Source: a virus
Virus record (IMG/VR): IMGVR_UViG_3300045988_085140
DNA: 64,000 nucleotides
Direction: 5' to 3' (one strand)
This document shows, one piece after another, positions 6,169 through 56,461 of this stretch. A program made the position numbers and the translations under genes. The notes beneath the pieces are model-generated. The model ran no database searches. It was not told where the DNA came from and was given only the letters and a program-made list of their open reading frames with translations. Within the stretch, counting starts at the first letter, position 1. Each line of letters begins with the position of its first letter.

Positions 6169-6184
6169 TTAAAATGTGGTAGGT

Positions 6185-6688: not shown

Positions 6689-6702
6689 TTAAATTGTGAG
6701 AT

Positions 6703-7166: not shown

Positions 7167-8324
7167 TTACTTATCGAAGAACTTATCAATCAGCCCCATC
7201 GCCTCATCCTTCTTCTTATCCACAATCTTAGCATATATCTCAGTAGTGGATATTCGGGAGTGACCGAGTAGCTTGCTGGTGGTGTATATGTCGGCTCCAA
7301 GCGTGAGCATCATGGTGGCGAAGGTGTGCCGAGCGGTATGGAAGGATATATTCTTCTTGATTCCTGCTGCCTTCGCCCATACCTTAATATGATAGTTGAT
7401 GTTTGGCTGCTGGCATAGTTCATAGAATACCAGTTCGTCATCCGTCTTTTCAGGCAACCATTTCATCGCCTCGTTGGATAGCTGATAGCTTACTACTCGC
7501 TGAGTCTTCTCCATCGTTTTGGTCAGGCGGTAGGATGATGTTCCGTCAGTATTCTTCACCTCTTCAATATCGCTCCATTTCAGCTTCCTGATGTCCGAGA
7601 TACGTAGACCCGAAAAACATGAGAACATAAATGCTTGTTTGGTATGCTTGCTGTAGCATTCTGTTGCAGCCAGTTTCTTCACCTCCTCAATATCTAGGTA
7701 TACTCGCTCGCTCTCAGGAGACCCGAACTTATAGCTTGGGTCTATGAGCGATAGGGGATTCATCTGAATGATGCCATCACGGACAGCCTGATTCAGAACC
7801 GTACCAAAGCAAGTAAGGTACACCTTCTTGGTTATTTCGCTGAACGGCTGCCCACCTCTCTTGGTGGCAGTCCTCAGATACTCTATCCACTTCATGCAAA
7901 ACTTCTTGTCTATGTCGACCATCTTGGTAGACTCGCCACAAAACTTCATGATATGCTTCTTCACATTCTCAATGGTCTTGCTGGATTCGTCCGACCTACT
8001 TGCCTTCTGCTTGGCAACCTTCACGATGTCTAGCCATTCTACCAAGCGCATGTTCTTGTTACTGCTGAATACTCCTGCCTTTCGGTTCTTCAAGTCGAGA
8101 ACCCTCTGAGCCTTGATGATATTCGCACTAGCCATCGTCTCAGCATTCTTCGCCCTCGCCTTCGCTCTTTCTCTGCCAACCTCTGGGATGAGGTATAGCT
8201 TTAGAAATTCATAACTCCTCTTTCCGTCCATATAGATGTCCAGATAGATACTCTTGTTTCCGTTGGCAAGTTCCTTGAATCTGATAGTGACTGGCTCCTT
8301 TTCGATTGTTTTCTTCCTTCCCAT
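7167..8324 (-). CDS. int: tyrosine recombinase / phage integrase
   Basis: C-terminus FHTARHTFATMMLTLGADIYTTSKLLGHSRISTTEIYAKI carries the R..H..R..Y catalytic set. Table start 8378 is TTG. The ATG at 8324 (MGRKKTIEKEP) is more likely. Confidence 0.85.
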   Translation of the reverse strand: MGRKKTIEKEPVTIRFKELANGNKSIYLDIYMDGKRSYEFLKLYLIPEVGRERAKARAKNAETMASANIIKAQRVLDLKNRKAGVFSSNKNMRLVEWLDIVKVAKQKASRSDESSKTIENVKKHIMKFCGESTKMVDIDKKFCMKWIEYLRTATKRGGQPFSEITKKVYLTCFGTVLNQAVRDGIIQMNPLSLIDPSYKFGSPESERVYLDIEEVKKLAATECYSKHTKQAFMFSCFSGLRISDIRKLKWSDIEEVKNTDGTSSYRLTKTMEKTQRVVSYQLSNEAMKWLPEKTDDELVFYELCQQPNINYHIKVWAKAAGIKKNISFHTARHTFATMMLTLGADIYTTSKLLGHSRISTTEIYAKIVDKKKDEAMGLIDKFFDK

Positions 8325-8385
8325 AAGCCTACATTTATTAATCTGCTGCAAAGATAAGCAATTTTTTGTTACTCGCAAATTTTCG

Positions 8386-12400: not shown

Positions 12401-13060
12401 ATGATAGGTGCATTAATAGGTGCTGGGCTTGGGCTTGCAAGCAGTATTGCTGGCGGTATAGCTAACCGCAAGGCGAGACGTAAGCAGGAGCAGATGATTG
12501 CCCAGCAACAGAGAGAAAATCAGGCATGGTATGACAGAACATACAATACCGACCCGACCAAGCGTGCTGATACGGTTCGCTTGCTCACACAGATGCAGGA
12601 GCAGATTAAGAACCGCAACAAGGCTGCCAAGGGTAGACAAGCGGTAATGGGCGGTACGGATGATTCCACTACTGCGGTGAAGGAGGCAAACAACAAGACT
12701 CTTGCTGATACTACCTCACAGATTGTAGCTGCAAATGATGCCCGAAAGGATAACATCGAGCAGCAGTATATGAACAGAAAGAATCAGTTGCAGAACCAGC
12801 AGATGGGTATGGAAGCTGAGAAGGCTGCTGATACTGCCAATGCGGTTGCAGGTGTGGCTGGTACAGCTGCAAACATCGCTGCATCACTTGATAGTGGTGC
12901 TGGTAAGAGTAAGGTGGCTCGTCCTAACGTGGAAATGCCTACCGATGCAGAAATGGCTAAGTTGGATGCAAAGGTGGGTGCGGCTCCTACCCAGCAGCAA
13001 GTAGTGAATGATTTGAACAATATGATTGGTGACAATGCGCCAAAGAAGATTAAAGCATAG
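12401..13060 (+). CDS. Gly-zipper membrane-anchored protein (putative internal/ejection protein)
   Basis: N-terminus MIGALIGAGLGLASSIAGGIANRKARRK, then a Q/N/A-rich region. First gene of the giant-ORF operon. Confidence 0.5.
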   Translation: MIGALIGAGLGLASSIAGGIANRKARRKQEQMIAQQQRENQAWYDRTYNTDPTKRADTVRLLTQMQEQIKNRNKAAKGRQAVMGGTDDSTTAVKEANNKTLADTTSQIVAANDARKDNIEQQYMNRKNQLQNQQMGMEAEKAADTANAVAGVAGTAANIAASLDSGAGKSKVARPNVEMPTDAEMAKLDAKVGAAPTQQQVVNDLNNMIGDNAPKKIKA

Positions 13061-14251: not shown

Positions 14252-14291
14252 CAGAATTGGTAACAAGAATTTGGTAACAAACATATATATC

Positions 14292-29200: not shown

Positions 29201-29378
29201 TTCCCTTGACAAGCAGGAGATTTCCGAGTTGAAGAAAGGTTTCTTGGATGATGGCAAGGATGCCTACAACGCTGAGGACATGAAGCAGATTCGTGACCTG
29301 AGAAAGAAGATTCTTTCCGTGCTGGAGAAGGCTAACAAGGTAGTTGTGGCTAACCAGAAGGCAAAGGCTAAGAAGTAA
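14292..29378 (+). CDS. giant polyvalent (multi-effector) virion-type protein, ~5028 aa
   Basis: Single uninterrupted frame. Table start 14271 is TTG; the first ATG is at 14292. Contains HEMTH (19149-19163), HEIQH (23511-23525), a complete C5-MTase motif set (24105-25052), Gly-rich hydrophobic segments and acidic low-complexity linkers. Confidence 0.85.
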   Translation: MAERPLYTLYKNLKAQNYDVPDDYNKFESALTRDGKGGADNRHAIYENLKAQNFDVPSTYERFYSALFEPRSKTSSRAKGGSVPMSAADRARFSAGAAAISASAQQTMNNAGRYNRLKQRKQKQQKDFGRVNLGTHQTPYGGDANNVVKDDFAYNPETGKTGAYVTSDNENVYSLPEAEQKQAILDQQNNAYQEAVDTGEIPSAFDVRDKKGNYDLQDNIGKNGTYLTEEGAQKQFDKKLADAYARKKEIEALIAEDNRQHGNPLLSYGASIGASNGRTAEQSDYRNKLATSLSLVTEQIGALEAVKQYPTSSWGEDALKALDNTAFTAKTWDFGLTDFAIMGQMERIKTKMDNNIPLSGSDKMLLKSKLGADAATAIEDEKMGNVYRWTKIAGKSLPFMADFFLTGGYGGITKGISRGALKFAAKRGMGKVSAAILKNTGIVAGDVIGSYAMAGTEQALKTGADIMQRHLGNLYQDEKGDYKFGTFDENGNLLHEGGESIGTALYKGMTSAMVENYTEKLFGHNYGIKKGAVNFMEKHGMNASAEFFKNIGKSGWYTNSKKWMEKFGINGFAEEVMEEEIGIPLHALLDGEGKVSDLLDAKQQLDIIGGMAISVGSMYAMGAGSRPVKGIYNRAQYYRFRNKVNVADSDAENLMGDNWADIKDKIDNATNEQMGSVLADILRQRDTMTKEQINAAVNYGVNLMKMRGYNIAKTAEMNAKEITNEPTTPEEQHQADIDNAYSEGHDADDADKHDIQIQQEDQMKTLAAALGISEQQLSAMSDEELESLTGQDDKLDQAIYDYQLSSARYQGVVDDAQDKVDLAAHQAEQRVDMYTDQSRGSVRNATIKASGGLEDYGVYIISGNIATHDDGSIDVSNSDDMILYYDPTTNSVEHADALMVAELGEELPADDVKAQAVSDAKENAIKEVAGIIDGTVEVGSQFNVTDTDGTEHTYEVLADYGDGTAAISIDGNVVENPYSLADLQQMKDLEDQKRLEAAKAEREQMEKERAAQQNQETEQTQPSFDFNQILNDNGNVVLVDVLDKDGNTKYPDSRLFLIRDAGAKAKVVELKSDGTLVPHAVNKEDVATISSMSLDEYKQAMPESSMIEDNSGENRGEIEVEAPTIEGEVAAPVNEVAAPESAETPATEQTPAAPAITLEDGTIVPMLEDGNPDFSKLTAAQTAELYDNQFGEDADSIVSGYVSDAKKALDKASNMTVKGKTFVEQKAAKDAKEKAIADAKAAYDSAIAIRDAYNERQLAKVEDTAEGRKELIEKARRKFARLKSAVKDDAEAVAQIYKETVGTLLHRLYDGTGIDVTDTIPLTAEEYVASNLGAHSLNYEGTETSKGVKQETGLSREDFAKTQLLAADGNGTTIDELVHSLWENRPSNLESLDTQDIRNALISVLNSGFKASEARNFVENIRIAQAENILEEQKRAQENAAYAEQHKAEQEAELKAKSDEKAELKAKSEAKSDNESDNKSDDLSNETDNDKINDNINDNINVPEDATDENPLGAERDESDLPFSTKENGKQQTTAERAADVEKNKVDDMKVVDNIVGEKTRKAFERLAKMMGANIQWQYSDKLGNGWIQETTDADGNVHRTIFITLDSSITEGAQFIFGHEMTHQIKNLNPAAYNELTQLVLDTYGSDAFDKAVDETMQRYSDAGFSGRARDYYAEEVVADAVGEMIRDLNLAHTLAMKMSHPLLAAIHEILQKIKLAFFGTEYSDVTKNIIRSIEQAYVKTANGQVTNSETGEDVSFSLRQKPEPKKKGIGYKVFVLKDGKLYPPMVANPDGAETPVGVWLDADAAPIAGESKTGRPQVKQGGKGTQGGSGKLAYRPGWHLGVVPYAIQFNRKDAEGNKTLFPKNFVFAEVEYAADVDYQEEARQEGINPSGKYQHSLAGLKHLPTDGYYMYRTNPNPETDPWVITGAMKVNRILTRAEQAELVKNAGREPQQIQEGDIVTDDVVNSINQEIADAPKFSLKDNQENPLNQDGTLKLDKIKSVDELTDEDFTSAFRNVELPAIPKNVDAAIGANGKPIVIKKNIFEKNWNAHKFTPAESKKVLNDALYNTDLVRHTQPTKKPNHWVAIKLDDKSPITVLEVNDNKNNVEVVGWYTLDERNLGRIKRQAERNGGELIMLTPKDDKVESLSTPPLSSAANIINSFETTKENGEKVDVEGTKFSLKDEEYLKAVEDGNMEKAQKMVNEAADAAGYSTDSSYQGTSAFNGAAPWGNGYFLTKDERKEAWDNGEFEGESTLGDYINDDIDGGNLEELTNAASYRAADPMRKEAIDNVRNAIQKKAKTITMYRSVPSDVKEGSFRNGDWVTPSRAYAVDNAKLHGWGDDYNIIEQKVPVDDVWFDGNDIAEWGYGREEDYINDTDFAYKNSKNNKKLLDAVTYDDNGNVIPLSQRFNEKNKDVRFSLKDEKTLAGVHNITEEKLRKALKLGGFANPSLAVIDTNKTGHDNFGEISFIAPSALLDKRTGNTGGTWITDAYTQRYPSVEREMSEKGYRKFEDWVDSLDYPSGAKAEIERQAKDALSDNNAPAWELMYLKEKGIDIKEYDSRIDYRWKEIISDHPTAEDILNSMKTDPELNEKVTSLAKHAIIHPTWEKVSLEVRRKMYKETGVKASPINPQVRKQTKEIFERDYAPTLLNKDGSPRKKDVKKVVEDIVKEHKDTKKYDFYLSKVKASNYVNKNGLYDDYIRWQENKLDEFGTKNRIFRGYTRDGSRKYVPETLENVSKAMREEADGQTNGSEYTSFGSFIAKLASRVDSTDEMRANKDKLSSNKDKEEFYEKWSDVYYDLAKFLYNDVFYGEQRLHDIVLQSDPKKYAKKEYGITLTPTFMKKLDALKNAVQTELKSAYFETKYNRPLRLNEFAAAVVPDNLGKDVRKGIENAGLPMYDYDPNKEGDRSRAFNEAINSSDNIRFSLAGVRGAAAADKAEERNARMDNLSVARKMEEEKKDAKAIKMATGWERGADGKWRYEMPDAKIKDTMDVGGGHIVKRYEDDMLWNGGKLFDVIDAPELFKAYPQLKGVRIDTDAIMNDMPSHGEYDSKTNTITIHADELKYMNDILNHEIQHAIQGIEGFATGGSPTTIRGEVKKRFNEVTKQIKQLRAEGKEDEAKALIEKNRGLYDAYMKNDDFNSYKSLAGEVEARNVQERMNMTPEERRKTLAESTEDVARKDQIFLGVGDVSFSLRDMADGKESGAADMAEDLKSLNTPDEVDDAIKTAIEDMPSGWKMANKKMIHIAQALGENRKAEIAGEEPKFSLKDGTLIKAGTYFSGGGLVEEGLKGIIDPVVAVEYDEKISGVYRNNFGQHIVTADVRDVDPKELVKQIDGEVEYFHASPVCKNYSQAKSNHAEVELDKETAASTAEFINAIKPKVVTIENVKGYKDSEAMKTITDALDANGYTWDADVYNAADYGGYTNRERLIVRAVRDGKLPAKPEKMARKSGWYEAVADIIPTLTEKKNGVAPWMDIRLKADGIDWRNIDKPLYVMGSAYADGKVPHAFADELLPTLRTKSGDVIVMPDGKVYRAMGRVLARVSGVSDDYKMPFSENLSHIIIGNGIPTQLTEHVIAPLLTGSDPKFSIRTYHGTGASFDKFDFSHMGEGEGSQAFGWGGYVTNSKDIAEDYTRRAKIRKDNDGFEFVTDMSANNKDMVRQYIYKYKDVNKGLDAMRKDLSSALEMFPDDDDLKELSNILAKKNEEIAVPDNIAYLYDVDIPDDNGDYLDWENKLKKSHLNKVNKELVRIGKEPIETIYPSRVDGKVRGQDLYDELSSMLGSKEAASKLLSDAGFVGIKYPAGTIYGGAEEGDYNYVIFDETNANIVGNTRFSLRYDQFEHDLNQWKKDNNLPKDAQRPTIPQRNAGESAVDFLRRVDEYRKQMALWKTAPTYEQHLLSDDTALGEFNRELQRGSVLKRIAFQDSMLAIRKAQEAIMKEVGVDRLNMAEDAYTAENRSHGKGKNEFEEYNNEFLQPLRKAYHQMKKILGDSYDNVRIYMMAKHGLERDSQMAFKKSLEADYEDVAQRSAAYKAYKGDMNRIINDSDLEFGRVDFTTWRQRDNALRAKYSPSYMNYRYDKNGIAYDYSGLSALFDGSDFEEAAYKLVKDIEDKYVTETHNLWDATNAATKKILRDGYKAGMMSKDTYQYVRDMYSHYIPLRGWYGTTADQVWDYIGGGKGAFNQTLKKAHGRTSIADDPIAYIENMAESGILLNNKNWVKQHLMLLAQNHPTSLLTLSKAWYVKSTDANGNEEWIPATPQITSQMDSNQVKAAIDAFEKKMEQMAQAGDATQKRDGLNIAYPQTHSEEREHEVRVMKDGEEYVIYVNGDPQLAQAMNNTRAHRVREIQSGKLDRAAAWLGRKMAAAYTSLSPLFIPSNYFRDLTMTLASTAIREDAKYNYLLRKNLATSWNLGFMLRDFQNGKLRDKVNNGNATPKEQMFYDFMMNGGETGFVSSLDVEDLKKKFKNDLKDLDRWKANPVKVGHTIMDSIEFLNRAIEDSNRFAVYMTSIQYGRSIDEAVNDAKNVTLNFNRKGTGEYGWQMIRNLYLFINPAVQSLQTLGALAKHHPFKFTAVTASWLASGVLVPIVNAALMSMLGGDDDKDKYWQFTKWDRRNNLIMWVPFTHEYVKIPLAQEFRAFYGIGDMIASKMMGGELAEESWSQYAEDLLGQVVDMLPLDPTGYDGNIAVSLMPNAIRPVFELAFNVDFTGKPLFKDTEYNKYDPNFTKAYVGTPDWLVRASRMVNSIGNDYPDVQQNSIDAFGDPRYNLNNPAVVDHVLSSYLGGAYTMGSQVLGLLTKSLNDPKEIKVADIPLFSKFVSNPDDRPVTKKQGDEFWNMKENHDRAANTLSKLKKQAKVDGDYSMLERFYGSEEYKKYKQDDVKVKKYEEDKKKERAEESGEEYRPHKLNAEDIYKAHATPKDDFEDLKLKQLYTKLNGFKTSYDLLVDTAPSQSDGYYNNNKAAIDAIDEISLDKQEISELKKGFLDDGKDAYNAEDMKQIRDLRKKILSVLEKANKVVVANQKAKAKK
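18648..18795 (+). repeat. low-complexity coding repeats (AELKAKS x2, NDNI x2)
   Basis: GAGTTGAAGGCGAAGTC occurs at 18648-18664 and 18678-18694, followed by a D/N/K/S-rich tract. A similar 16-nt repeat GAGGTCGCGGCTCCTG occurs at 17673-17688 and 17694-17709. Confidence 0.7.
18930..19562 (+). other. zincin-like HExxH module 1 inside the giant ORF
   Basis: ...TIFITLDSSITEGAQFIFGHEMTHQIKN...YAEEVVADAVGEM. Bounded upstream by the D/N/K/S low-complexity linker and downstream by the first FSLR motif. Confidence 0.5.
23079..23870 (+). other. zincin-like HExxH module 2 inside the giant ORF
   Basis: ATGWERGADGKWRYEMPD ... ILNHEIQHAIQGIEGFA ... SLAGEVEARNVQER. Lies between FSLA (23067) and FSLR (23871). 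Confidence 0.5.
24105..25052 (+). other. C5-cytosine DNA methyltransferase module inside the giant ORF
   Basis: YFSGGGL (motif I), VAVEYD (II), HASPVCKNYS (IV, Cys codon 24336-24338), TIENVKG (VI), TNRERLIVRA (VIII), IIGNGIP (X). Confidence 0.75.
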
Positions 29379-33726: not shown

Positions 33727-34983
33727 TTAGGAAAGCTGAGTACCATCCATGTTTACCCATGAAGAGCCATCCCATATAATTAACTTTCCTAAAGAGGTGT
33801 CTTTAAAAATATAACCTATCTGTACACCTGATGGTCTTTCTTCTGTTGTACCTTTTTTCTTGGCGTCAGCCGGATTTCCATTTGCATCTATCCATTTTCC
33901 ATTTCCATTACTCCATATTGGCATTTGTAAAGTTTTATCAAAATACATATAACCAGCCAAAGCATCAGAAGGTCTATTCTCTGTAAGACAAGCATTATTT
34001 GATACCTCTAAAAGATAATAGTTATCTTTGTCTTTTCTGCCATAACAAAAAATAAGACGTCCAGGTAAATTTTTAAATGCATAAAAGCAATTAGTTCTTC
34101 CATACTTCTTAATATCATCTAAACTAGAAATATAAACTATATTTTCTAAATGGTATGGAATAACATATACTAGAGTTTGCTTATGATTCACTTCATCTTT
34201 ACTCCATAAAAGGAAATAATAATTCCCATAAACATTATTTATATCTCTAGTACCTTCGTGATAAAATGCTATTGTTATTGGTTGTACTGCATCTGTCAAA
34301 TCATATCCTATATTGTCAATATATGGTATATCTTTTTTATTAGCATCAATAGCTTGTGTTACATATCCATTGCTTTGGTCGATGTATAAATACTTAATAT
34401 TTTTAGTATAAAACGTAAATGATTTTACAAATCCAGAACCTATACTTACAATTGCGTTATTACCATTATAAGGAATAATACAAGGTGTATTCAAGCTCTT
34501 GTAATCGTTTTGATAATGTTGTCCCTTAATTACTTGAACATTTTCTTTTAAAACCTCTTTTGGGTCAAAATAAAAATTATTTTGAACTTGATATGAAGTT
34601 TCGTTAGAAAATACAAGAACTTTACACCCAACACATTGTGTCATATAGATACCATACTCACGCTTGCCATCTTCAGTTTGCTCATAACCAATAACAAGTG
34701 TAAATGGTTTTCCAAAAAGATGCACATTACTATAGATGATTTTCCATTCATAGTCTTTATTTATCTTATAATCACTACTATTATTATATGCCCCGACCTG
34801 TAATAGTGTAGCATCTGAATTTATTGAAATACCTTCAGTAGTATATGTATTATTGTGACCAGTTAGTACTAAAATAGAAAATGTTGATAATGGACCTGTT
34901 ATTGAAAATAGTTTCAAATATTTTGTTCCATCATCAGCAGCACTAACTGAATTAACCATAAATGATTGTATCGCTGATTCCAT
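33727..34983 (-). CDS. tail fibre / receptor-binding protein (AT-rich)
   Basis: 418 aa. The C-terminus carries two copies of a Bacteroides-phage fibre-tip-like motif: YMYFDKTLQMPIWSNGNGKWIDANG and GYIFKDTSLGKLIIWDGSSWVNMDG. Confidence 0.6.
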   Translation of the reverse strand: MESAIQSFMVNSVSAADDGTKYLKLFSITGPLSTFSILVLTGHNNTYTTEGISINSDATLLQVGAYNNSSDYKINKDYEWKIIYSNVHLFGKPFTLVIGYEQTEDGKREYGIYMTQCVGCKVLVFSNETSYQVQNNFYFDPKEVLKENVQVIKGQHYQNDYKSLNTPCIIPYNGNNAIVSIGSGFVKSFTFYTKNIKYLYIDQSNGYVTQAIDANKKDIPYIDNIGYDLTDAVQPITIAFYHEGTRDINNVYGNYYFLLWSKDEVNHKQTLVYVIPYHLENIVYISSLDDIKKYGRTNCFYAFKNLPGRLIFCYGRKDKDNYYLLEVSNNACLTENRPSDALAGYMYFDKTLQMPIWSNGNGKWIDANGNPADAKKKGTTEERPSGVQIGYIFKDTSLGKLIIWDGSSWVNMDGTQLS

Positions 34984-34987
34984 ATTA

Positions 34988-36667
34988 TTAAATATTTAAA
35001 AAATAATTATATAAGGAGTCTAATGCTCCTTTAGAAAAGTTACTATAATAATCTCTATATTTACCAAAACATTCTATATACCACATACAAATATCTTTAA
35101 TTCCATTTGTTTTGGCAGCATAGAATACAGTATCAAAGAAGCATTTTGTGAATATAAAATCCTTATCAATATTTATTGTTTCGAATTTGTTTCCAATTTG
35201 ATAATCAACAGGATTTAAAGAATTTTCATAGAATGGCATACATCCTGCTTCTGTAAAAGTTAATTCTTTATTATAAAGAGAATAACCATTAAAATAATTT
35301 TCTGCACGAGTTTTTAATACATTATCAAAAGTAGTCCTTTCCTTCAAATACGGTATTTTAGGATAATAATTTTTACCAATTATGTCAAGTTCATCTAATA
35401 ATATTTTATTTATTATTGATGGTGAATAATTGGTTGAAACACCTACTTTTTTCCCATAGCTATGTACTATATTAGCTATACTTACAAGTATACTTGCATC
35501 TTCTTGTTTAGAAACATTAGTTGTATTTTCATTTGATATATAAACATGTTTTATGCTCTGATATTTTTCAATTAGAGGAATAACATTTTTTATAAACAAA
35601 GAAACATAATTACTTCTATTCTTCTCTGTTATACTTGTATGAAGTTTTATATCTGTTATATTTATTTTATATTTTTCTATTAGTCTAATTTGCTCGTCAA
35701 TAGGAAGAGAATTATTAGAAACCACCCACTGAAAATCATTGAAACCTAAATTCCTTGCAGGCTCTAAAAGTTGGACAATATTAGTTTCGTTATTAACAAA
35801 TGCTAAATTTGTATAGAAATGCAATGAACGATTTATTATATCTAACTTTGTAGTAGCTTCTTTTCCATCTATAAAGCATTTTCCAACAAACTCAATATTA
35901 CTAAAGTTTTTCTTTGTACATCTTTCCAAATCAATTTTGAACGATGCTAGTCTTCCATTCCTCAACATACCCCCTTCAAACTTCAAGATACAATTATCAG
36001 GAATGATAATCTCATTACCATCTAAATCAAAGTCATACCGAATCTCATAGATAGTATTAGACTGATTCATCATAATTGGCATTAGGATATTTCGAAGCTC
36101 CTTCTTAGTACTATCAGTAATTGAACATGACGCACCAGTGCTAACTGCACTAAAAGATGATGGTGAGGAGACGTCACCACCAAACTTGCGAGTAATATTA
36201 ATCGTTGAAGCATCTTTTGATACTTCATACTCTGTCATGGTTGCAGAAAGTTTTGCGGCAATCTTGTCAGCAACTTTATCCGTTGTGGTATCTGTTGATG
36301 CTACGACATCTACGTGGTTTTCTATACCATTGATGATGAAAGATATGTAACCATCTGATGTTGGAACAGATGATACTACTATTTTTGTTACAGCAAGAGA
36401 GACTGGTTTGATATTCTTACGTAGAATCTTGTAGCCCTTACCGCTGAAATTCTGAGGGGAATAGGAACGGTCGGCAAATTTTGTCACAGAACGTCCGTTA
36501 TCATCGAATGACCTAGTAAGGTCTTCTTCGTCAACGGGAGATAGAGAAGAAACCTCTTGGTTGATTTCCTCCTGCATCTTGCCTAGTTTCTTGTCATATA
36601 TATTATCTGAATTTGCTAACCTTTTGTCTTTTCTTGAAGATTCTAGCGTACTACCTAATTTTACCAT
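34988..36667 (-). CDS. tailspike-like protein with probable glycan-degrading C-terminal domain
   Basis: 559 aa. N-terminus FADRSYSPQNFSGKGYKILRKNI ... IYEIRYDFDLDGNEIIIPDNCILKFEGGMLRNG resembles phage tailspike/pectate-lyase-like proteins. The C-terminal half is AT-rich. Confidence 0.55.
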   Translation of the reverse strand: MVKLGSTLESSRKDKRLANSDNIYDKKLGKMQEEINQEVSSLSPVDEEDLTRSFDDNGRSVTKFADRSYSPQNFSGKGYKILRKNIKPVSLAVTKIVVSSVPTSDGYISFIINGIENHVDVVASTDTTTDKVADKIAAKLSATMTEYEVSKDASTINITRKFGGDVSSPSSFSAVSTGASCSITDSTKKELRNILMPIMMNQSNTIYEIRYDFDLDGNEIIIPDNCILKFEGGMLRNGRLASFKIDLERCTKKNFSNIEFVGKCFIDGKEATTKLDIINRSLHFYTNLAFVNNETNIVQLLEPARNLGFNDFQWVVSNNSLPIDEQIRLIEKYKINITDIKLHTSITEKNRSNYVSLFIKNVIPLIEKYQSIKHVYISNENTTNVSKQEDASILVSIANIVHSYGKKVGVSTNYSPSIINKILLDELDIIGKNYYPKIPYLKERTTFDNVLKTRAENYFNGYSLYNKELTFTEAGCMPFYENSLNPVDYQIGNKFETINIDKDFIFTKCFFDTVFYAAKTNGIKDICMWYIECFGKYRDYYSNFSKGALDSLYNYFLNI

Positions 36668-37684: not shown

Positions 37685-37727
37685 CAAAGATAGGCAGAAA
37701 TTTCTCCACCTATCTTTTATCCGTTTA
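37685..37727 (-). promoter_or_regulatory. late-type promoter: TAAACGGATAAAA + 24 nt + TATCTTTG
   Basis: On the minus strand GGATAA is at 37722-37717 and the -7 box at 37692-37685. ATG at 37671. Confidence 0.6.
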
Positions 37728-37744: not shown

Positions 37745-38050
37745 TTAGATTAAGCCCTTCCATCTGAGAAATTTGCGCTTTCGGCTGCGCTTTCCCTTCT
37801 CACTCTTGCAGTTGGTATGGTAGACACAATCCTTGAAGAGGTCTCTGACCTTCATGTCGCTGTCTACCAGTTTGGTTTTCTTGAATGCCTCGAAGAGTGA
37901 GCGATTCATAATCATGAGGTTGCCCTTCTGCGTAGGAAGAACATAGAAGATTTCACCATTGTTCTTCTTAGATGCGTAGTCTGCCTTAGCCGTAGCTTGG
38001 CGGTACATAATTTCGCACTTGATGCGCTTAAAAATCTTTGTTACTTTCAT
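37745..38050 (-). CDS. hypothetical basic protein
   Basis: 101-aa ORF downstream of terL with an ATG start. Confidence 0.5.
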   Translation of the reverse strand: MKVTKIFKRIKCEIMYRQATAKADYASKKNNGEIFYVLPTQKGNLMIMNRSLFEAFKKTKLVDSDMKVRDLFKDCVYHTNCKSEKGKRSRKRKFLRWKGLI

Positions 38051-38074: not shown

Positions 38075-40219
38075 CTATATGATGGTTGCTGCCGAAACAG
38101 AAACCTTTCTTCTCATTACTCTTGCCTGAATGGAAATCATCTTAGGCATTTCCATTTCATTGAAACAGATGTGGAGTCCGATGGCTCTAGTCATGAGCAA
38201 ATCATCGTGCTTTCCGTCTGCTGCCTCGTATACGGTTCCGTTCTTCTCGTATGTGAGATATTCATCTAAGCATCTATCGTCTCGCTCTACATAGAGTTGT
38301 TCACGGATAACCTGAACCAATACTGAGATAACCATTGGCTTGGTTGCCACGTTGGTATGGAATCCGTACTTCACTGGAACCTTATTCTTGATGTCTGATT
38401 CACTCTGCTTGCGTGCATAGAGGTTGTCGTATACGTCCTTGATTTGATTCAGGATGAACTCAGACTGGTCACCACCTTCCAAGATGTGCTCCTTGTCTTT
38501 CGTCTCCAAGGTGTTGGATTCAATCACCAACAGAGCATCGTTGTAGTATTTGGCTATCTGAGCCGCCTTCCATGCCAGCAAGTCCATATCAATATGCCCA
38601 TACCATTGGGCTACCACATACGGCTTGCCACCTTCCATCATCCAATAGCGGTCGAAGACACAGATAACAGACCAGTCGGCATTCTTGCTACGTCCACCAA
38701 TATCCACTACGACCAGATAGCGGTTTATCACCTTGCAATCATCAAAGGTCTCAGGCTTGCTCCATATCCACAACTGCCCCTGCTTGTCTTCACAGAATCG
38801 GACATTCTGCATACACTTCTTGCCCTTGTAGCCATCACCATAAACATCACCGATGAACTTAGGTGCTCGGCATCCCTTGCGGAACTTGTCAACCTTGTCT
38901 TCGGCAAACACCTTGGCTCCTGAATGCTTGAATGCTTCAATATCATCGGTAGGGTAGCCAGCAGCCATATCGGCATGGTCGGTGAACTTCCTGCGCTCGG
39001 CAATATACCAGTTGATGGCTTCGAGTGGAGCACCAAGCGTCCATAACTTCCAAAGATAGGTGCATGGCTCCTCTCGGTCGGACATCGTATTGGTATTGTT
39101 GCGGTTCTCATATAGCCATTTGGCAAACTCTACCTTCTGTTTCTTGCTTTCAAATTCAAGATGATACATATCGTATATCTCGTACCAAGGAACAAAGAAT
39201 GGCTCAAACTGAGATTCACCTTTGACTGCTGCAAGCCACTCCTTATGGAAGAAGTTACCAGTACCATTGGCGGTGGATTCATAGGCAATCATCGTGTATG
39301 GTCGATACAAGATACCATTTGTTGCATTCTGTACTACCTCCTCAGGAGATTTACCATCTGTCTTTTTCCACAAACCCACCTCGGAAAGGTGTACCAAGTT
39401 GTAGTCTTCACCATTGGCTGACAATGGTCGTTCCATGGAACCCACCTTAATTTTGCAGAATCGCTGAGGAACCTTCTTTACGTTGCCTGATGTTCCCACT
39501 CCAACAAACTTCGGCTCGTTCTCAGAGAATGCTTCTCCCATTTCGTAGAGAAACTTGGTCGGGAAGTTTTTCAGAGCTTCCTCGAACATACCACGGATGG
39601 TCTCTGCTGTGTCCTTGACCTGAGCCACGATGAGCGAGTTGAGACCCTTCTGCCACATGAGTTGCAGCCAGAGGAAGTACATCTGGATAACCGTAGAACC
39701 TCCCCATTGTCGGGCTTTCAGCAGGATGAGACGGATAGGGCGATTCTTCTTTCTTCGCTCCTCCAGCCACCTGAGCAGTCTGCGCTGCGGTCTTCTGAGC
39801 ACAAAACGGAAGGGGAGACCTCCACCTTTCGGCTTGATATAGATGAATGTGGCGAAGAAGAAGAAAGGGTCGTGTTTCATCCTGATGCGAGTGAACTGCT
39901 CCACCAGTTGCTCCATTTCTTCCTCTAGATTGTACGGCTCGTCTATATCCTTGTGCAGTTCCTCGATTACAGCCTTGCAACTACCAAACTCGATGAGCAT
40001 CTTGACGAGCGGAATCTTCTTCATGGAAACTGGAAGCTGCTGTCTCTGAATCGGGAAATCAGGAAGGAAGAGCAGGAATCGCTTATCTCCACAACCTTCA
40101 CCCTTGATAGGATTGAAAGGTGTGTTGATTTCCTTGATTCGTTTCTCGTTCTCTTTCAGGATGCCCAGTACATGTTTGTCTACAGCATCAGTCAGTTTGG
40201 CGGTTACTTGTCTTGGCAT
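38075..40219 (-). CDS. terL: terminase large subunit
   Basis: Walker-A-like LLKARQWGGSTV. C-terminal RNase-H-like nuclease motifs VVVDIGGRSKNADWS and DGKHDDLLMTRAIG. Table start 40291 is TTG; the ATG at 40219 (MPRQVTAKL) is preferred. Confidence 0.85.
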   Translation of the reverse strand: MPRQVTAKLTDAVDKHVLGILKENEKRIKEINTPFNPIKGEGCGDKRFLLFLPDFPIQRQQLPVSMKKIPLVKMLIEFGSCKAVIEELHKDIDEPYNLEEEMEQLVEQFTRIRMKHDPFFFFATFIYIKPKGGGLPFRFVLRRPQRRLLRWLEERRKKNRPIRLILLKARQWGGSTVIQMYFLWLQLMWQKGLNSLIVAQVKDTAETIRGMFEEALKNFPTKFLYEMGEAFSENEPKFVGVGTSGNVKKVPQRFCKIKVGSMERPLSANGEDYNLVHLSEVGLWKKTDGKSPEEVVQNATNGILYRPYTMIAYESTANGTGNFFHKEWLAAVKGESQFEPFFVPWYEIYDMYHLEFESKKQKVEFAKWLYENRNNTNTMSDREEPCTYLWKLWTLGAPLEAINWYIAERRKFTDHADMAAGYPTDDIEAFKHSGAKVFAEDKVDKFRKGCRAPKFIGDVYGDGYKGKKCMQNVRFCEDKQGQLWIWSKPETFDDCKVINRYLVVVDIGGRSKNADWSVICVFDRYWMMEGGKPYVVAQWYGHIDMDLLAWKAAQIAKYYNDALLVIESNTLETKDKEHILEGGDQSEFILNQIKDVYDNLYARKQSESDIKNKVPVKYGFHTNVATKPMVISVLVQVIREQLYVERDDRCLDEYLTYEKNGTVYEAADGKHDDLLMTRAIGLHICFNEMEMPKMISIQARVMRRKVSVSAATII

Positions 40220-40683
40220 AGCGGTGCATTTAGATAACCCCACAACAGACCAAGTACATAGCAATAGATGTGGACTCCAACTGCCATGCAAGGGAAGAAG
40301 ATTCCAACACAGATATATAGGAGAATGGTGAGATTGTATCTTACCTTATTCTCCACGTATGGGGCGATAAAGCCCATGTAAGCATAGATAAATCCGCTGA
40401 GACCGATGATTGGTAGGGGAGAGGTGAATGGATAGCTGATGGCTATGAGATAGAATGCCACCAAGTGACCGATGCCACAAGGGATGGCTCGGTAGCATTG
40501 ATGGAAGACATATAGGTTGATGGCTGCATGAAAGATATTCTGATGAAAGAAAGGGTAGCTTAGTCGGTTCTGAATAGAACAATCGTCAAAGAGACCCATG
40601 CCATCATATCCAAGAAAAGTGATACACATTATTATAATGTACCCAGCATAAAGCGCAATCTTCTCTTTCGTCTCTCGTAGCAT
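40204..40683 (-). CDS. rhomboid-family intramembrane serine protease homologue
   Basis: 159 aa with ~6 hydrophobic helices. FHAAIN (HxxxN), IGLSGFIYAYMGF (GxSG, very like GlpG GLSGVVYALMGY) and VGVHIYCYVLGLLWG (H..G...G). Confidence 0.7.
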   Translation of the reverse strand: MLRETKEKIALYAGYIIIMCITFLGYDGMGLFDDCSIQNRLSYPFFHQNIFHAAINLYVFHQCYRAIPCGIGHLVAFYLIAISYPFTSPLPIIGLSGFIYAYMGFIAPYVENKVRYNLTILLYICVGIFFPCMAVGVHIYCYVLGLLWGYLNAPLCQDK

Positions 40684-41087
40684 CTTTGCTTCTCCTCCTT
40701 TCTCACCCTGCTAAGAATTACGTGTATGCTTTGAGGAGTCAAATAGAAACTGGGTGCTTTTTCAGCACATACACGTTTGATAATATCCATATTACTGAGA
40801 TATGGCTCATTACTCTTATGAATCTGGAATCGTCTGAAAATCTCCTGATACATTTCCTTTCGGGTAGGAATCATGTTATCAAGAGGTTTTCCTTTCAGTA
40901 AGTCTAATATGACTATATAAGCACGGTCTTCTGAAACCCAAAATCTTCTGCTCGGAGATTGGGCTAGCTTTTCCTCAATCTCTGAGAGTCTGATATTGTC
41001 TCTTACATTAATAATTTCTTTGTAAGCCCTCAATAAATCAGCATCACGTTCCTCTATAAAATAGCATCGTGAATCCTTATATTTCAT
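40632..41087 (-). CDS. hypothetical protein, candidate small terminase by position
   Basis: 151 aa with a basic C-terminus RKEEKQRCYERRKRRLRF. First gene of the packaging operon. Positional evidence only. Confidence 0.35.
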   Translation of the reverse strand: MKYKDSRCYFIEERDADLLRAYKEIINVRDNIRLSEIEEKLAQSPSRRFWVSEDRAYIVILDLLKGKPLDNMIPTRKEMYQEIFRRFQIHKSNEPYLSNMDIIKRVCAEKAPSFYLTPQSIHVILSRVRKEEKQRCYERRKRRLRFMLGTL

Positions 41088-41098
41088 ATCTGACCCTG

Positions 41099-41106
41099 CA
41101 AATATA
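41099..41106 (-). promoter_or_regulatory. -7 box TATATTTG of the packaging operon
   Basis: Consensus TAnnTTTG on the minus strand, 12 nt upstream of ATG 41087. A degenerate AATCGGATGC lies 21 nt further upstream. Confidence 0.45.
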
Positions 41107-41145
41107 CAAAAAAGTATTGAATTAGTCGCATCCGATTAGATTAAA

Positions 41146-41188
41146 TTAACGGATAAAAGATGAAAATCGGAAAAAAGCATTAATTTTG
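41146..41188 (+). promoter_or_regulatory. late-type promoter: TTAACGGATAAAA + 24 nt + TAATTTTG
   Basis: GGATAA at 41151-41156 and the -7 box at 41181-41188. Drives the scaffold-capsid-portal operon. Confidence 0.6.
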
Positions 41189-41219
41189 GGCATTGATTTA
41201 TAACTATACACATATATAT

Positions 41220-42086: not shown

Positions 42087-43625
42087 ATGAAGAAAAGTAC
42101 ATTTAATCGGCTGCTTTCCGTCTTCCTGATGGTTATGGCAGTTATTTTTGGAGTGAATGGTCAGGTTATCATGGCTGAGGCGGCTCTGCCTGATGGCGGT
42201 ACGACCGAGAGTGGTCATGCTGCTGAGGCAGGTGGGGCTGCTGCTGCCGATGATGCTGGCAATGGCGGTGCGGCTCGTCAGGATGATGGTATCGCTACTG
42301 AGGGAAAAGGTCGTGAGCACTTTAACGAGAATGGTACTGAGTTCTATGAGAACGACATCAACGACAAGATTACCAAGATTCGTCCGATGGCTACTCCAGT
42401 TGACCAGATTTCACGCTATGCGACAACCAAGTCTGCTAGTTCGTTTGTAGTTGAGTATTGGAGTATCGGTACACGCCCTATCAAGACAACCGTCAAGGAG
42501 GCGACCGTGGAGAGTACTGGTACATCTATGGTATTGAAGGTAGAAGACCCTGAAATGTTTACGCTGGATGATACCATCCGAGTGGTAGGTGTTAAGGCGA
42601 TTACCAATTATGAAGGTAAGGCTTATACAGACCTTACCGATGAGCCTACTCCAGACTTGGAACTTTGCGTTTGCGGTAAGGACACAGAGGGTTTCCCAAT
42701 CGTGTTTGCCGTAAACGGTAAGTTGGTAAAGAAACAGGCTATCGGTATTCCTGCCTTGAAGAATGGTCAGAAACTTATCCGTATGGCTAAGAGTTGCGGT
42801 GAGTTGGACGTACAGACTGGTCGTTTCAACAACCTTCCAGATTCTGATATTCAGTACTGCCAGAACTTCATGATTCAGGTTGAGGAGAGTACCTTCAACA
42901 AGATTGCTGCTAAGAGAGTAGATTGGGACTTCTCAGACATTGAGGAGGATAGCATCTACGATATGCGCCTTGCGATGGAGGGTACTTATCTCTTCGGTGA
43001 TATGGCTTGTATCAAACATACTACCAAGAACAACTCTGCCCAGTGGTTTACCAAGGGTATTTGGTGGATGGCTGGTAAGGATATTGAGGTAGGTCATGTT
43101 GCTACTGCTGACGATATTAAGAAGGGCTACGGCAAGAATGAACGAGTGATTACTGATTTGGAATTGGTTGACATTTCAAAGGACTTGTTTGTTGGTACTG
43201 GTATCGGCAACAAGCGCAAGGTGATTATCGCTGGTTCTGCCTTCGTGAGTGCATTCAGTAAGATTGACTCTGACAAGTTCCGCTTGAAGGACACCGTAGA
43301 GGTTTGGAATTTGAAGTTCAAGAGTTGGGAGACTGACTTCGGTGAGGTACTGATGATTCACTCTGAGTTGTTTGACCTCTTTGATATGAGTGATTGCGGC
43401 TTCGCCCTTGACCCTGAGTTCTTGGTTAAGCGAGTACACTTGTCTTGGACTCGAAACGTGCTCGACTTGAAGAAGGCTGGCATCCGTAACACCGATGCAG
43501 TAGTTATTCAGGAGGTAGCTTGTCTGTACTTGAAGTACCCTAAGGCACACGCTCGTATGCGCCTTGCTGCGGTTTCTGCAACAGATAGCCCTTCTGATAC
43601 AGAGGTAACCAAGGCTGCTGCCTAA
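42087..43625 (+). CDS. major capsid protein (HK97-fold type) with long N-terminal extension
   Basis: 512 aa, between the scaffold-like gene and a strong terminator. ITKIRPMATPVDQISRY...VVEYWSIGTRP resembles phage MCP N-arm regions. Confidence 0.65.
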   Translation: MKKSTFNRLLSVFLMVMAVIFGVNGQVIMAEAALPDGGTTESGHAAEAGGAAAADDAGNGGAARQDDGIATEGKGREHFNENGTEFYENDINDKITKIRPMATPVDQISRYATTKSASSFVVEYWSIGTRPIKTTVKEATVESTGTSMVLKVEDPEMFTLDDTIRVVGVKAITNYEGKAYTDLTDEPTPDLELCVCGKDTEGFPIVFAVNGKLVKKQAIGIPALKNGQKLIRMAKSCGELDVQTGRFNNLPDSDIQYCQNFMIQVEESTFNKIAAKRVDWDFSDIEEDSIYDMRLAMEGTYLFGDMACIKHTTKNNSAQWFTKGIWWMAGKDIEVGHVATADDIKKGYGKNERVITDLELVDISKDLFVGTGIGNKRKVIIAGSAFVSAFSKIDSDKFRLKDTVEVWNLKFKSWETDFGEVLMIHSELFDLFDMSDCGFALDPEFLVKRVHLSWTRNVLDLKKAGIRNTDAVVIQEVACLYLKYPKAHARMRLAAVSATDSPSDTEVTKAAA

Positions 43626-47753: not shown

Positions 47754-48017
47754 ATGACTCCAAATGTACGTGAAGGATTGCAATATGGTGCAGCTATAGG
47801 AATGCTAGTGAGTGGTGTTGTACTCACCTTCCTATCATTCTTTCTCGACAATTATGTGGTGTCTGATGGTGTGCTGTGGTATGTCAGTCAGACATTGGTT
47901 TACTCTGGAGCAATATTCGGGGTAAACGTTTATTTCAAGACAAAACTAGGCAACTTTGAGAGCAAGGTGAAGGATGAACTCGCAAGTATGCTGAAACAAG
48001 TGAAGGAGGGCAAGTAA
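47754..48017 (+). CDS. holin (two TM segments)
   Basis: 87 aa with two hydrophobic helices and a charged C-terminus. Immediately upstream of the endolysin. Confidence 0.65.
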   Translation: MTPNVREGLQYGAAIGMLVSGVVLTFLSFFLDNYVVSDGVLWYVSQTLVYSGAIFGVNVYFKTKLGNFESKVKDELASMLKQVKEGK

Positions 48018-48018
48018 T

Positions 48019-48567
48019 ATGAAGGTAACAAGAGAACAGATTTTGGCTATTATGCCGAATGCCAAGGATAAGATGGATGCGTTTCTTCCTTATATCAATG
48101 GCTATGCTGAGGTGTTCCATATTGATACTCCTAAGCGAATGGCTCATTTCTTGGCTCAAATTGCACATGAAAGTGGTGAACTGAGATACACCAAGGAACT
48201 CGGCAACAAGGACTACTTCCATAGGTATGATGTGGGCAAGTTGAAGAACATGCTCGGCAACCTTAAAGATGGTGATGGCTACAAGTATCGGGGTAGGGGA
48301 TTGATTCAGATTACTGGCAGAGCCAACTATCAGGCTTATCAGAACAGCAAGTATTGCACTGGTGACATCATGGAGAATCCTCAGTTGCTGGAGCTTCCGC
48401 TAGGAGCAACGAAGAGTGCTATGTGGTGGTGGTGGAAACATGACCTGAACAAACTGGCTGATAGTGATAGTTTCGTGGCTATTACCAAGACAATCAATGG
48501 TGGAACCAACGGCTTGAAATCAAGACGAAAGTTTCTTACAAGAGCAAAGAAGGTCTTTAATGTTTAG
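48019..48567 (+). CDS. endolysin, GH19 chitinase-like muramidase
   Basis: MAHFLAQIAHESGELRYTKE ... YRGRGLIQITGRANY is a hallmark of GH19-type phage lysins. Confidence 0.85.
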   Translation: MKVTREQILAIMPNAKDKMDAFLPYINGYAEVFHIDTPKRMAHFLAQIAHESGELRYTKELGNKDYFHRYDVGKLKNMLGNLKDGDGYKYRGRGLIQITGRANYQAYQNSKYCTGDIMENPQLLELPLGATKSAMWWWWKHDLNKLADSDSFVAITKTINGGTNGLKSRRKFLTRAKKVFNV

Positions 48568-48570
48568 CCT

Positions 48571-49038
48571 ATGAAAGTAAAATGGTACGATACTGATTTT
48601 TGGCAAGTAGCACTCTACGTGATTGGTATCTTGCTGGTGGCTTTTCTTCTGTCGGGATGCAAGACAAAATACGTCCCGATGGAAAAAGTTATATGTCGGG
48701 ACGTAGTAAAACACGATACGCTGCATACTTCTGACAGCGTTTTTGTGCGTGATTCCATCTTTCTCAGACAGAAGGGAGATACTTGCTTTCTTGACCGATG
48801 GCATGAGAAGAGCATTTATAAAAATGTGTATAAGGTGAAGGTGGATTCCTTCCTGAAAAGAGATTCCATCCCAGTTCCCTACCCAGTTGAAAAACAACTC
48901 TCCAAGTGGGAGCAGTTTCAGTTGAAATATGCAGTATGGTCATTTTTGGCACTCTGCATGCTGTTAATCGTATTAGGCTATAAACTCTATAAAAAGATAA
49001 AGAATGGCAAATTTCACATTGACAATCACGAAAAGTGA
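48571..49038 (+). CDS. unimolecular-spanin-like lipoprotein
   Basis: N-terminal lipobox LLSGC plus a C-terminal TM segment WSFLALCMLLIVLGYKLY. Directly after the endolysin. Confidence 0.55.
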   Translation: MKVKWYDTDFWQVALYVIGILLVAFLLSGCKTKYVPMEKVICRDVVKHDTLHTSDSVFVRDSIFLRQKGDTCFLDRWHEKSIYKNVYKVKVDSFLKRDSIPVPYPVEKQLSKWEQFQLKYAVWSFLALCMLLIVLGYKLYKKIKNGKFHIDNHEK

Positions 49039-56179: not shown

Positions 56180-56461
56180 CTATTCTTCGTTACATAAAGT
56201 TTCTACTACCTTTGTTCTTGTGGTTTTTGTTGCAGGGTCATATTCGTTATGAATAGCTTTTGCCACACCTTTTTTGTTGGTAAAATAAACAACTCTGCCA
56301 CCATCATAGAAACGATATACGGTTATACCATCCACAACAAAAAGCTTCTCTACTTTAATTTCATTAATAGAGTCTGATGTTGGAACATTAATTCCTTTGT
56401 TCTCGTTGCAAGAAACGAGCAGGAATATAACCGATACAAATAATAATATAATCTTCTTCAT
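56180..56461 (-). CDS. small lipoprotein
   Basis: MKKIILLFVSVIFLLVSCNENKG (lipobox). Confidence 0.55.
   Translation of the reverse strand: MKKIILLFVSVIFLLVSCNENKGINVPTSDSINEIKVEKLFVVDGITVYRFYDGGRVVYFTNKKGVAKAIHNEYDPATKTTRTKVVETLCNEE

Follow-up and report, generated by a model that had tools for sequence, protein, structure and literature searches.

The IMG/VR virus record IMGVR_UViG_3300045988_085140 is a stretch of 64,000 nucleotides (nt; hereafter the window) that essentially represents the whole genome of a temperate phage. On its minus strand, directly ahead of terL, the gene for the large terminase subunit, lies an open reading frame (ORF) with an ATG start that encodes a protein of 159 amino acids (aa). 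An earlier note, made from the nucleotide sequence, had described this ORF as a homologue of the rhomboid intramembrane proteases inside the DNA-packaging operon, and this description is borne out by the sequence motifs, profile comparisons, predicted fold and synteny reported here. The coordinates of the ORF, its catalytic codons and the other main features are given in Table 1.

A rhomboid homologue among the packaging genes

The three hallmarks that had been noticed in the predicted protein, along with its six helices, are all present: the HxxxN motif (F51-H52-A-A-I-N56), the GxSG motif (I93-G94-L-S96-G97-FIYAYMGF) and the His of transmembrane segment (TM) 6 (V135-G-V-H138-IYCYVLGLLWG). The overlaps described for the ORF hold as well, namely 52 nt with the upstream 151-aa ORF and 16 nt with terL, the latter given a terL start at the ATG at 40219; with the longest terL ORF, which starts with TTG at 40291, the overlap would be 88 nt. 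The 16-nt overlap recurs on related contigs whose genes were called independently.

Compared on its own, the window protein is a borderline match to known rhomboids. The Pfam Rhomboid model recognises it with E = 0.045 and 14.4 bits, short of the gathering score of 22.6, which weighs against the assignment, and Haemophilus influenzae GlpG is matched at E = 0.06; both alignments pair the HxxxN, the GLSG and the TM6 His correctly. Homologues numbered 68 in the first search and 511 in a profile search, and when 1.84 billion cluster representatives were searched exhaustively with a profile, 667 homologous clusters at 50% identity were recovered (277 of them at <1e-10), with nearly all members 145-190 aa long; the 90%-identity cluster holds 3,702 sequences. 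When a 39-sequence family profile was compared with PDB, it matched H. influenzae GlpG at 1.6e-7 and Escherichia coli GlpG at ~5e-4, with the catalytic Ser and His aligned. Pfam Rhomboid was matched individually by 35 of these 39 relatives (best, 1.5e-8), and precomputed PF01694 matches are present in many members of the clade of the cultured Bacteroides phage BS-TP4.

Residues H47, H52, N56, G94, S96 and H138 are invariant both in an alignment of 90 sequences and in all 146 full-length representatives of 50%-identity clusters. G145 is kept in 133 of 147 sequences, and the nearly invariant Cys141 stands where the AHxxGxxxG-type motif has its first Gly. The first loop (L1) of the window protein comprises only ~25 residues, with QNRLSY, and is devoid of the Trp of the WR motif; R40 in this loop is kept in 123 of 147 sequences, and some relatives have W-W-x-R. 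The presence and invariance of both Ser96 and His138 set the family apart from the inactive iRhom/Derlin class.

The AlphaFold (AF2) model obtained with the 90-sequence alignment has a predicted local distance difference test score (pLDDT) of 90.6 and a predicted TM-score (pTM) of 0.86, with helices at residues 2-22, 50-66, 71-82, 96-109, 113-129 and 135-152 and an L1 helix at 37-45. In this model, TM4 starts exactly at Ser96 and His138 lies within TM6. The 90-sequence run replaced an earlier one with 37 close sequences, in which TM6 was of low confidence (pLDDT 73) and the superposition was poor. A Foldseek search of PDB with the model returned E. coli GlpG as its first 14 matches (probability 1.0, TM-score 0.53-0.67, root-mean-square deviation 4.3-5.5 Å); iRhom1 ranked next, so that the top 16 were GlpG or iRhom1, and was followed by Der1, the remainder being noise. 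Among the BFVD models, proteins of Podoviridae sp. ctzXp5 and ctsfx1 superimpose on the window model with TM-scores of 0.70-0.76. Seven of the eight Lys and Arg residues fall into predicted cytoplasmic parts, that is, the N-tail, the TM2-3 loop, the TM4-5 loop and the C-tail, and the canonical topology is therefore predicted, with both termini in the cytoplasm (N-in/C-in) and the active site toward the periplasm. The rhombosortase model of NCBIfam did not match the window protein at E<=1, nor did the prohead maturation protease families (S78, U9, S49/ClpP-like) in Pfam or PHROG searches, and PHROGs v4 contains no family for it.

An IMG/VR scan with terL detected 275 relatives, of which the best 80, all at least 97% identical in terL, were kept. 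Among these, the rhomboid ORF is intact in 77 of 77 full-length copies, which represent 69 nucleotide alleles and 42 protein variants, and the ratio of nonsynonymous to synonymous polymorphism (pN/pS) over the 77 copies is ~0.18. The codons for Asn56, Gly94, Ser96 and Gly97 show synonymous changes, and there are zero replacements at catalytic residues. The rhomboid ORF is a real gene under purifying selection. At codon 89 (window 40417-40419), in the TM3-TM4 loop directly ahead of the catalytic turn, the window allele encodes Pro, as opposed to Ser in all 77 close IMG/VR relatives.

The order of the upstream gene (terS-like), the rhomboid gene and terL was found in every relative checked. The same arrangement is present in the cultured Bacteroides phages BS-TP4, BKO1-TP3 and BF1-TP2, on metagenomic contigs that share no more than 23-40% rhomboid identity with the window, and in prophages or contigs of Segatella copri HDE04, Prevotella, Alloprevotella, Butyricimonas and Bacteroidaceae. 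The hosts of the three cultured phages are B. salyersiae BG8 for BS-TP4, B. koreensis HM3 for BKO1-TP3 and B. fragilis BL19 for BF1-TP2. Among 80 diverse IMG/VR loci recovered with the major capsid protein (MCP), 76 have this synteny and the other four are contig truncations. One locus of a divergent mini-rhomboid (P0229) also has it; single-protein scans for the loci of three others (P0186, P0159 and P0264) found nothing. Because the arrangement is kept in every relative examined, the rhomboid gene is a core gene of the phage family rather than a moron. The two checks that had been proposed for the rhomboid assignment, structure prediction and conservation in related phages, accordingly gave a rhomboid fold with Ser96 and His138 in the expected helices of the model, and an ORF retained beside terL throughout.

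Taken together, these lines of evidence point to a catalytically competent, unusually small intramembrane serine protease of the rhomboid type, a reading to which we assign a probability of roughly 0.85-0.9. The predicted enzyme would have six TM segments, cytoplasmic ends, a truncated L1 and a Ser96-His138 dyad that, with His52 and Asn56, opens to the periplasmic leaflet of the host inner membrane; it is encoded by a core gene of a family of temperate podovirus-like phages of Bacteroidales, located in a four-gene late operon with overlapping frames. The window protein is a real rhomboid protease, very probably an active one, and belongs to a distinct phage-specific mini-clade that is fixed in the terminase operon.

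Neighbouring genes and the phage genome

The gene upstream of the rhomboid, kept ahead of it in all loci, encodes a basic protein that the earlier note had named as a candidate small terminase. The position upstream of terL fits this designation; the protein has no match in Pfam, NCBIfam or, by profile search, PDB, and its match to phrog_27246 (1e-35) is to a family with no function assigned, so that it is a small-terminase candidate by position alone. It contains an internal repeat, PSRRFWVSEDRAYIVI / APSFYLTPQSIHVIL (also given as SPSRRFWVSEDRAYIVIL / KAPSFYLTPQSIHVILS), that is reminiscent of tandem helix-turn-helix units and is followed by a very basic C-terminus. In one lineage, the upstream protein is fused in-frame to the N-terminus of the rhomboid (P0124); the identical fusion sequence occurs on nine contigs, and the four retrieved contigs come from four different sequencing runs of the Sequence Read Archive (SRA). 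Fusion to a soluble upstream protein supports the cytoplasmic location of the rhomboid N-terminus, and suggests that the upstream protein works physically with the rhomboid on the cytoplasmic face. A programmed frameshift in the 52-nt overlap, which the fusion had brought to mind, was rejected because the rhomboid starts at an ATG of its own, preceded by a purine-rich stretch, and the relatives lack a conserved slippery heptamer; an indel in one lineage better explains the fusion.

The terL product has an N-terminal extension of ~160 aa that is not found in outgroup terLs: in tblastn searches, the annotated terLs of Vibrio, Roseobacter and Stx phages match it from residue ~160 onward. The nearest terL relatives outside the family are at most ~27% identical and have an unrelated gene order. 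A gene of ~100 aa comes after terL in BS-TP4 and on three metagenomic contigs (L003, L007 and L095), as it does in the window, where it is the last of the four genes of the operon. The only strong terminator-like hairpin follows this fourth gene, and no comparable terminator was detected inside the operon. Since the ORFs overlap and no terminator was detected between them, co-translation of the rhomboid with the packaging genes, as the note had proposed, appears plausible.

The operon diverges from that of the scaffold, capsid and portal genes on the plus strand across a presumed late promoter region. Among the head genes of the window are a capsid protein and an adaptor of the SU10 type and a portal of the P22 type. 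The giant polyvalent protein has counterparts of ~5,390 aa in BS-TP4 and ~3,630 aa in BF1-TP2. In the compact lysis cassette, the 155-aa spanin-like protein combines a lipobox (LLSGC) with a C-terminal TM and resembles a unimolecular spanin.

Two further regions of the window stand out. Downstream of the packaging operon, a sharp low-GC island at 34000-36000 (GC content 0.27, as against ~0.44 elsewhere) covers two large minus-strand ORFs, 33727..34983 and 34988..36667, one of them with a weak GH113 match; the island has the appearance of a tail-fibre or receptor-binding module subject to horizontal exchange. Three small ORFs with lipoprotein-type signals (…LCSCG, …LVSCS and …LVSCN), located at 6176-7128 (+) and 56180-56461 (-), are probably morons that encode lysogenic-conversion or surface lipoproteins.

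Table 1. Positions of the rhomboid gene, its neighbours and other features discussed in the text (window coordinates unless a contig is named)
Feature	Position	Strand	Remarks
Predicted mini-rhomboid intramembrane serine protease	40204..40683	minus	159 aa, ATG start; motifs, profile and fold
Ser96 codon (catalytic Ser)	40396-40398	minus	AGC, read in window DNA
His138 codon (catalytic His)	40270-40272	minus	CAC, read in window DNA
His52 codon (oxyanion residue)	40528-40530	minus	checked in window DNA
Asn56 codon (oxyanion residue)	40516-40518	minus	checked in window DNA
Upstream basic protein, small-terminase candidate by position alone	40632..41087	minus	151 aa; phrog_27246
terL, large terminase subunit	38075..40219	minus	714 aa from ATG 40219; phrog_2 at 2e-17
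Conserved ORF, last of the four-gene operon	37745..38050	minus	101 aa; ORF list
Intrinsic-terminator-like hairpin closing the operon	37686..37717	minus	14-bp stem; terminator scan
Intergenic region from which the packaging operon (minus) and the scaffold/capsid/portal operon (plus) diverge	41088..41192	.	gene layout; presumed late promoter region
Fusion of terS-like protein and rhomboid (P0124)	L095:1980-2858 (also L096, L097, L098)	-	292 aa
Major capsid protein (MCP), SU10/HK97-type	42087..43625	plus	512 aa; Pfam SU10_MCP 7.8e-28, residues 82-491
Signal/anchor-like segment of MCP, residues 1-33	42087-42185	plus	MKKSTFNR, hydrophobic core, G-V-N-G-Q-V-I-M-A-E-A
Gly-zipper protein, candidate substrate	12401..13060	plus	219 aa; just upstream of the giant polyvalent protein
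Giant polyvalent protein	14271-29378	plus	5,035 aa; LPD13, PBECR5 nuclease, C5 DNA methylase, ART-PolyVal, LPD23, LPD38
Lysis cassette	47754..49038	plus	87-aa holin-like protein, GH19-type endolysin, 155-aa spanin-like protein; compact
Integrase	7167..8378	-	part of the temperate phage genome; strand not specified

Candidate substrates and possible roles

The rhomboid gene is located in the most conserved operon of a tailed phage, and its product must therefore be important to the phage. Judging from the gene arrangement and from the proteins conserved with it, we put at slightly under even odds the possibility that the rhomboid acts late in infection, in virion morphogenesis, on a phage-encoded protein with an N-terminal membrane anchor, a class of substrate that we infer; the enzyme would clip such a protein or release it from the membrane. 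Only two anchored proteins are conserved as deeply as the rhomboid itself, the Gly-zipper protein and MCP. When the window phage was compared by BLASTP with BF1-TP2, its most divergent cultured relative, the only shared proteins with hydrophobic segments were the rhomboid, MCP and the Gly-zipper protein. No other protease families were detected among the morphogenesis genes of the window.

The Gly-zipper protein, conserved in BS-TP4 and BF1-TP2, has an N-terminal TM, MIGALIGAGLGLASSIAGGIA, followed by NRKARRK, and is accordingly predicted to be a type III protein (N-out/C-in) like TatA, a topology that bacterial rhomboids favour (PMC7232013). Rhomboids recognise a hydrophobic residue at P4, a small one at P1 and a hydrophobic one at P2' (PMC2941825), and the N-terminus of the Gly-zipper protein, (hydrophobic)-x-G-[AS]/[LAV]-[IV] with the slash marking the putative cut, is compatible with this rule, the BS-TP4 and BF1-TP2 homologues included. 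The protein also has a weak match to a holin PHROG (7.9e-4). Among the phage membrane proteins suggested as substrates in the earlier note, it remains a good candidate; by sequence and by analogy it may be a substrate, though we regard this as unlikely.

The MCP of the window carries an extension of ~80 aa (window 42087-42330) that lies N-terminal to the region of the Pfam SU10_MCP model and is lacking in the SU10 MCP. It comprises a K/R-rich start, a hydrophobic segment of 13-20 aa (in the window, Kyte-Doolittle hydropathy is 2.15 over residues 12-30), a stretch of small residues and a linker, acidic and rich in Gly and Ala, whose length varies. PDB sequence searches with MCP, as a single sequence and as a profile, gave no matches. 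The anchor segment is kept in 120 of 120 homologues among the matches listed and in all 78 loci in which the MCP N-terminus is on the contig, and it co-occurs with the rhomboid in 76 of the 76 loci where the contig allows the check; within the window's own population, the anchor is nearly invariant and the linker varies. Alignment of 156 distinct N-termini gave the consensus G-[AV]-[SN]-[SG]-x-V-Φ-M-A-[END]-A, in which the central Ala is present in all 156 sequences, the Val three residues earlier in 139 and the Ala two residues later in 135. The resulting motif, G-x-x-x-V-Φ-M-A-x-A, is compatible with the same P4/P1/P2' rule. Translation from an internal start at Met29, which would yield a soluble isoform, was rejected: this Met is replaced by L, V, I or T in deeper clades, an AT-rich leader precedes the first ATG in each of the relatives, and synonymous changes occur in the stretch that encodes the anchor.

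Under the more specific version of this proposal, which we consider doubtful, the rhomboid would be a morphogenetic protease that cleaves the MCP anchor. The HK97-fold MCP would be synthesised with a removable membrane anchor at its N-terminus, by which capsid subunits or nascent procapsids are held at the inner membrane; the rhomboid, made together with the terminase, would cut the anchor at the conserved V-Φ-M-A/x-A (the slash again marking the cut), and cleavage would set the capsids free to be packaged and link the assembly of heads to the supply of terminase. If true, this would be the first case of an intramembrane protease shown to take part in virion assembly, and MCP would be the first HK97-type capsid precursor with a membrane anchor.

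Several observations weigh against this proposal. The A-x-A pattern suits a Sec signal-peptidase I site equally well, and processing of MCP by host signal peptidase is the obvious alternative. By the positive-inside rule, the N-terminus of MCP is predicted to be N-in (type II or a Sec signal), and after cleavage at the periplasmic face the capsid domain would then end up in the wrong compartment. Bacterial rhomboids favour substrates of types I and III (PMC7232013); a type II protein can loop back into the rhomboid active site (Strisovsky et al., PMC2941825), but this would leave the compartment problem of MCP unsolved. The link between the rhomboid and the MCP anchor lacks phylogenetic independence, as both traits are family-wide: terL and MCP searches found no close outgroup without the rhomboid or without the anchor, tblastn with MCP detected only the three Bacteroides phages even at E=1, and the distant SU10, the only usable comparison, has neither the extension nor the rhomboid. 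For the Gly-zipper protein, a cut near the N-terminus of its helix would take off merely a few residues. Finally, the late co-expression of the rhomboid with the terminase is itself presumed. Because of the non-independence, the N-in orientation and the signal peptidase alternative, we claim MCP only as one of two candidates, and a tentative one, with a chance not far from that of the Gly-zipper protein or a little better. Judged by sequence, the MCP anchor nevertheless appears as a striking, unexplained and co-conserved feature, a capsid protein with a membrane-targeting-like signal.

Alternatively, the rhomboid might target a host inner-membrane protein conserved across Bacteroidales, for instance an abortive-infection or defence effector that is anchored in the membrane and responds to late proteins such as the terminase, portal or capsid, a component of quality control or transport, or a protein required for superinfection. 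We view such a target as possible but rather improbable. The known bacterial rhomboids have cellular membrane proteins as their substrates, such as TatA, MgtE and orphan respiratory subunits. If expressed together with terL, the enzyme would be available for counter-defence just when the trigger appears. In addition, the rhomboid diverges faster than its neighbours (27-35% identity between relatives, compared with 43-63% for MCP and 46-58% for terL), which is compatible with an arms race. However, the family spans several host families, so that the enzyme would be diverging against a target that must itself be widely conserved; furthermore, the gene is locked by its overlaps into the packaging operon instead of residing among early or moron genes, and the fusion to the upstream phage protein points to a partnership within the phage. 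Evidence of anti-defence, padloc matches included, was neither looked for nor encountered.

The same fusion, found in at least four sequencing runs, and the tightly overlapping reading frames could also speak for a mainly non-proteolytic role, in which the rhomboid serves as an anchor or adaptor that holds the terS-like protein at the inner membrane, and thereby also the start of packaging or the assembly of procapsids. There is a parallel in the rhomboid YqgP, which is reported to be an adaptor as well as a protease. Such a role seems quite improbable, given that a plain anchor needs no rhomboid fold and that H52, N56, G94, S96 and H138 are the same in all 146 representatives and are kept through synonymous changes; with an invariant catalytic set, dispensable catalysis is not expected.

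Still less probable is the control of lysis timing through processing of the holin, an antiholin or the spanin, even though the window encodes holin-like, GH19 endolysin and spanin-like proteins, which include membrane proteins made late. The rhomboid gene is located ~7 kb from the lysis cassette, within the packaging operon. BLASTP showed no detectable conservation of lysis proteins between the window phage and BF1-TP2, and the endolysin of BS-TP4 is an amidase, differing from the GH19 type of the window, whereas the rhomboid is constant in presence and position. Because the lysis cassettes vary among family members in this way, the holin and the spanin, both suggested previously, are disfavoured as substrates.

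That the ORF is non-functional, be it a chance ORF, a pseudoprotease or the decaying remnant of a host rhomboid, would fit the sub-threshold Pfam score of the single sequence, a length below that of characterised rhomboids and the missing Trp in L1, but is effectively refuted by the pN/pS of 0.18, the 77 intact copies out of 77, the 667 clusters, the invariant catalytic residues and the confidently predicted rhomboid fold.

At 159 aa, the protein may be close to the minimal functional core of a rhomboid and thus useful for structural and mechanistic work. To our knowledge, the physiological roles of bacterial rhomboid proteases are largely unknown, and here the question is testable, with three cultured relatives that have Bacteroides hosts and two named phage-encoded candidate substrates. 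If MCP is the substrate, its cleavage would be a form of capsid maturation not seen before; if the target is a host defence protein, the rhomboid would represent a new class of anti-defence enzyme. The phage family is a prevalent one: BS-TP4 was detected in 31% of 930 viromes from healthy donors in China (PMC12694917).

Relation to annotated phage rhomboids and known proteases

The earlier note knew of no characterised phage rhomboid, and full-text literature searches found no functional study of any phage-encoded rhomboid; as annotations, phage rhomboids already exist. Several proteins of the family carry the label rhomboid in GenBank and UniProt, among them BS-TP4 gp8 and BF1-TP2 gp59 in GenBank, and proteins of gut-virome metagenome-assembled genomes (Podoviridae) are named 'Rhomboid family' or 'GlpG-like protein'. 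The homologue in BKO1-TP3, gp50, is mislabelled 'glycoside hydrolase', and the paper that describes the Bacteroides phages does not mention the rhomboid gene. In all three cultured records (L001, L002 and L088, that is, PQ571277, PQ571269 and PQ571263, respectively), terL is misnamed 'tail spike protein'. A rhomboid is likewise annotated in the Stenotrophomonas phages DLP3 and DLP5, but the 175-aa rhomboid of DLP3, gp93, lies among hypothetical genes, a few genes from homologues of PIG-L, WcaG and WecE, and not beside the terminase. Hence the fold and the label were known already, and what is new is the position of the gene, its universality in a prevalent family of gut phages, its minimal size and the candidate link to capsid maturation.

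The closest counterpart among characterised enzymes is GlpG of E. coli and H. influenzae (MEROPS S54, PF01694), the best PDB match both of the family profile (1.6e-7) and of the predicted fold (TM-score 0.6-0.67). GlpG and the window protein share the six-TM core, the HxxxN on TM2, the G-L-S-G-x-x-Y-A-x-M-G at the start of TM4, the TM6 His with a conserved Gly seven residues on, and the predicted N-in/C-in topology. GlpG of H. influenzae has ~192 aa, and that of E. coli consists of a core of ~180 aa and a cytoplasmic domain. Compared with GlpG, the 159-aa window protein has shortened L1, L4 and L5 loops, lacks the Trp of the WR motif and has Cys141 at the equivalent of G257; identity is ~20%, and the protein is encoded by a phage, in a terminase operon, and on its own falls below the Pfam gathering threshold.

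Two pairs of a rhomboid and its substrate offer parallels to the candidate substrates. AarA of Providencia stuartii trims the short periplasmic N-terminus of the type III protein TatA at a motif with hydrophobic P4, small P1 and hydrophobic P2' residues (PMC2941825). The phage Gly-zipper protein, a candidate substrate only, shares the predicted topology of TatA and a compatible N-terminal sequence. It bears no relation to TatA, however, and probably serves as a virion or ejection protein, and the phage enzyme represents a distinct, divergent clade. In the rhombosortase/GlyGly-CTERM system of Vibrio and Shewanella, a dedicated rhomboid is matched with a tripartite signal composed of a Gly-rich motif, a hydrophobic helix and a basic cluster, of which the N-terminus of MCP, with its basic cluster, helix and small-residue motif in this order, looks like the mirror image. 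The differences are that MCP, the only candidate found to bear such a motif, has its signal at the N-terminus instead of the C-terminus, that the phage enzyme has no NCBIfam match, and that the substrate would be a capsid protein assembled in the cytoplasm.

Proteolysis during capsid maturation is familiar from the prohead proteases, such as gp4 of HK97 and gp21 of T4, and from the host protease Prp, which trims the capsid and scaffold proteins of staphylococcal phage 80alpha. Prohead proteases remove an N-terminal extension of an HK97-fold capsid protein, and the MCP of the window has such an extension of ~80 aa. They have no homology to the window rhomboid, however, for which a role in maturation would be a matter of analogy only, and the known ones are soluble and act inside the procapsid; by comparison with these systems, a membrane-embedded protease that acts on a capsid protein would be unprecedented.

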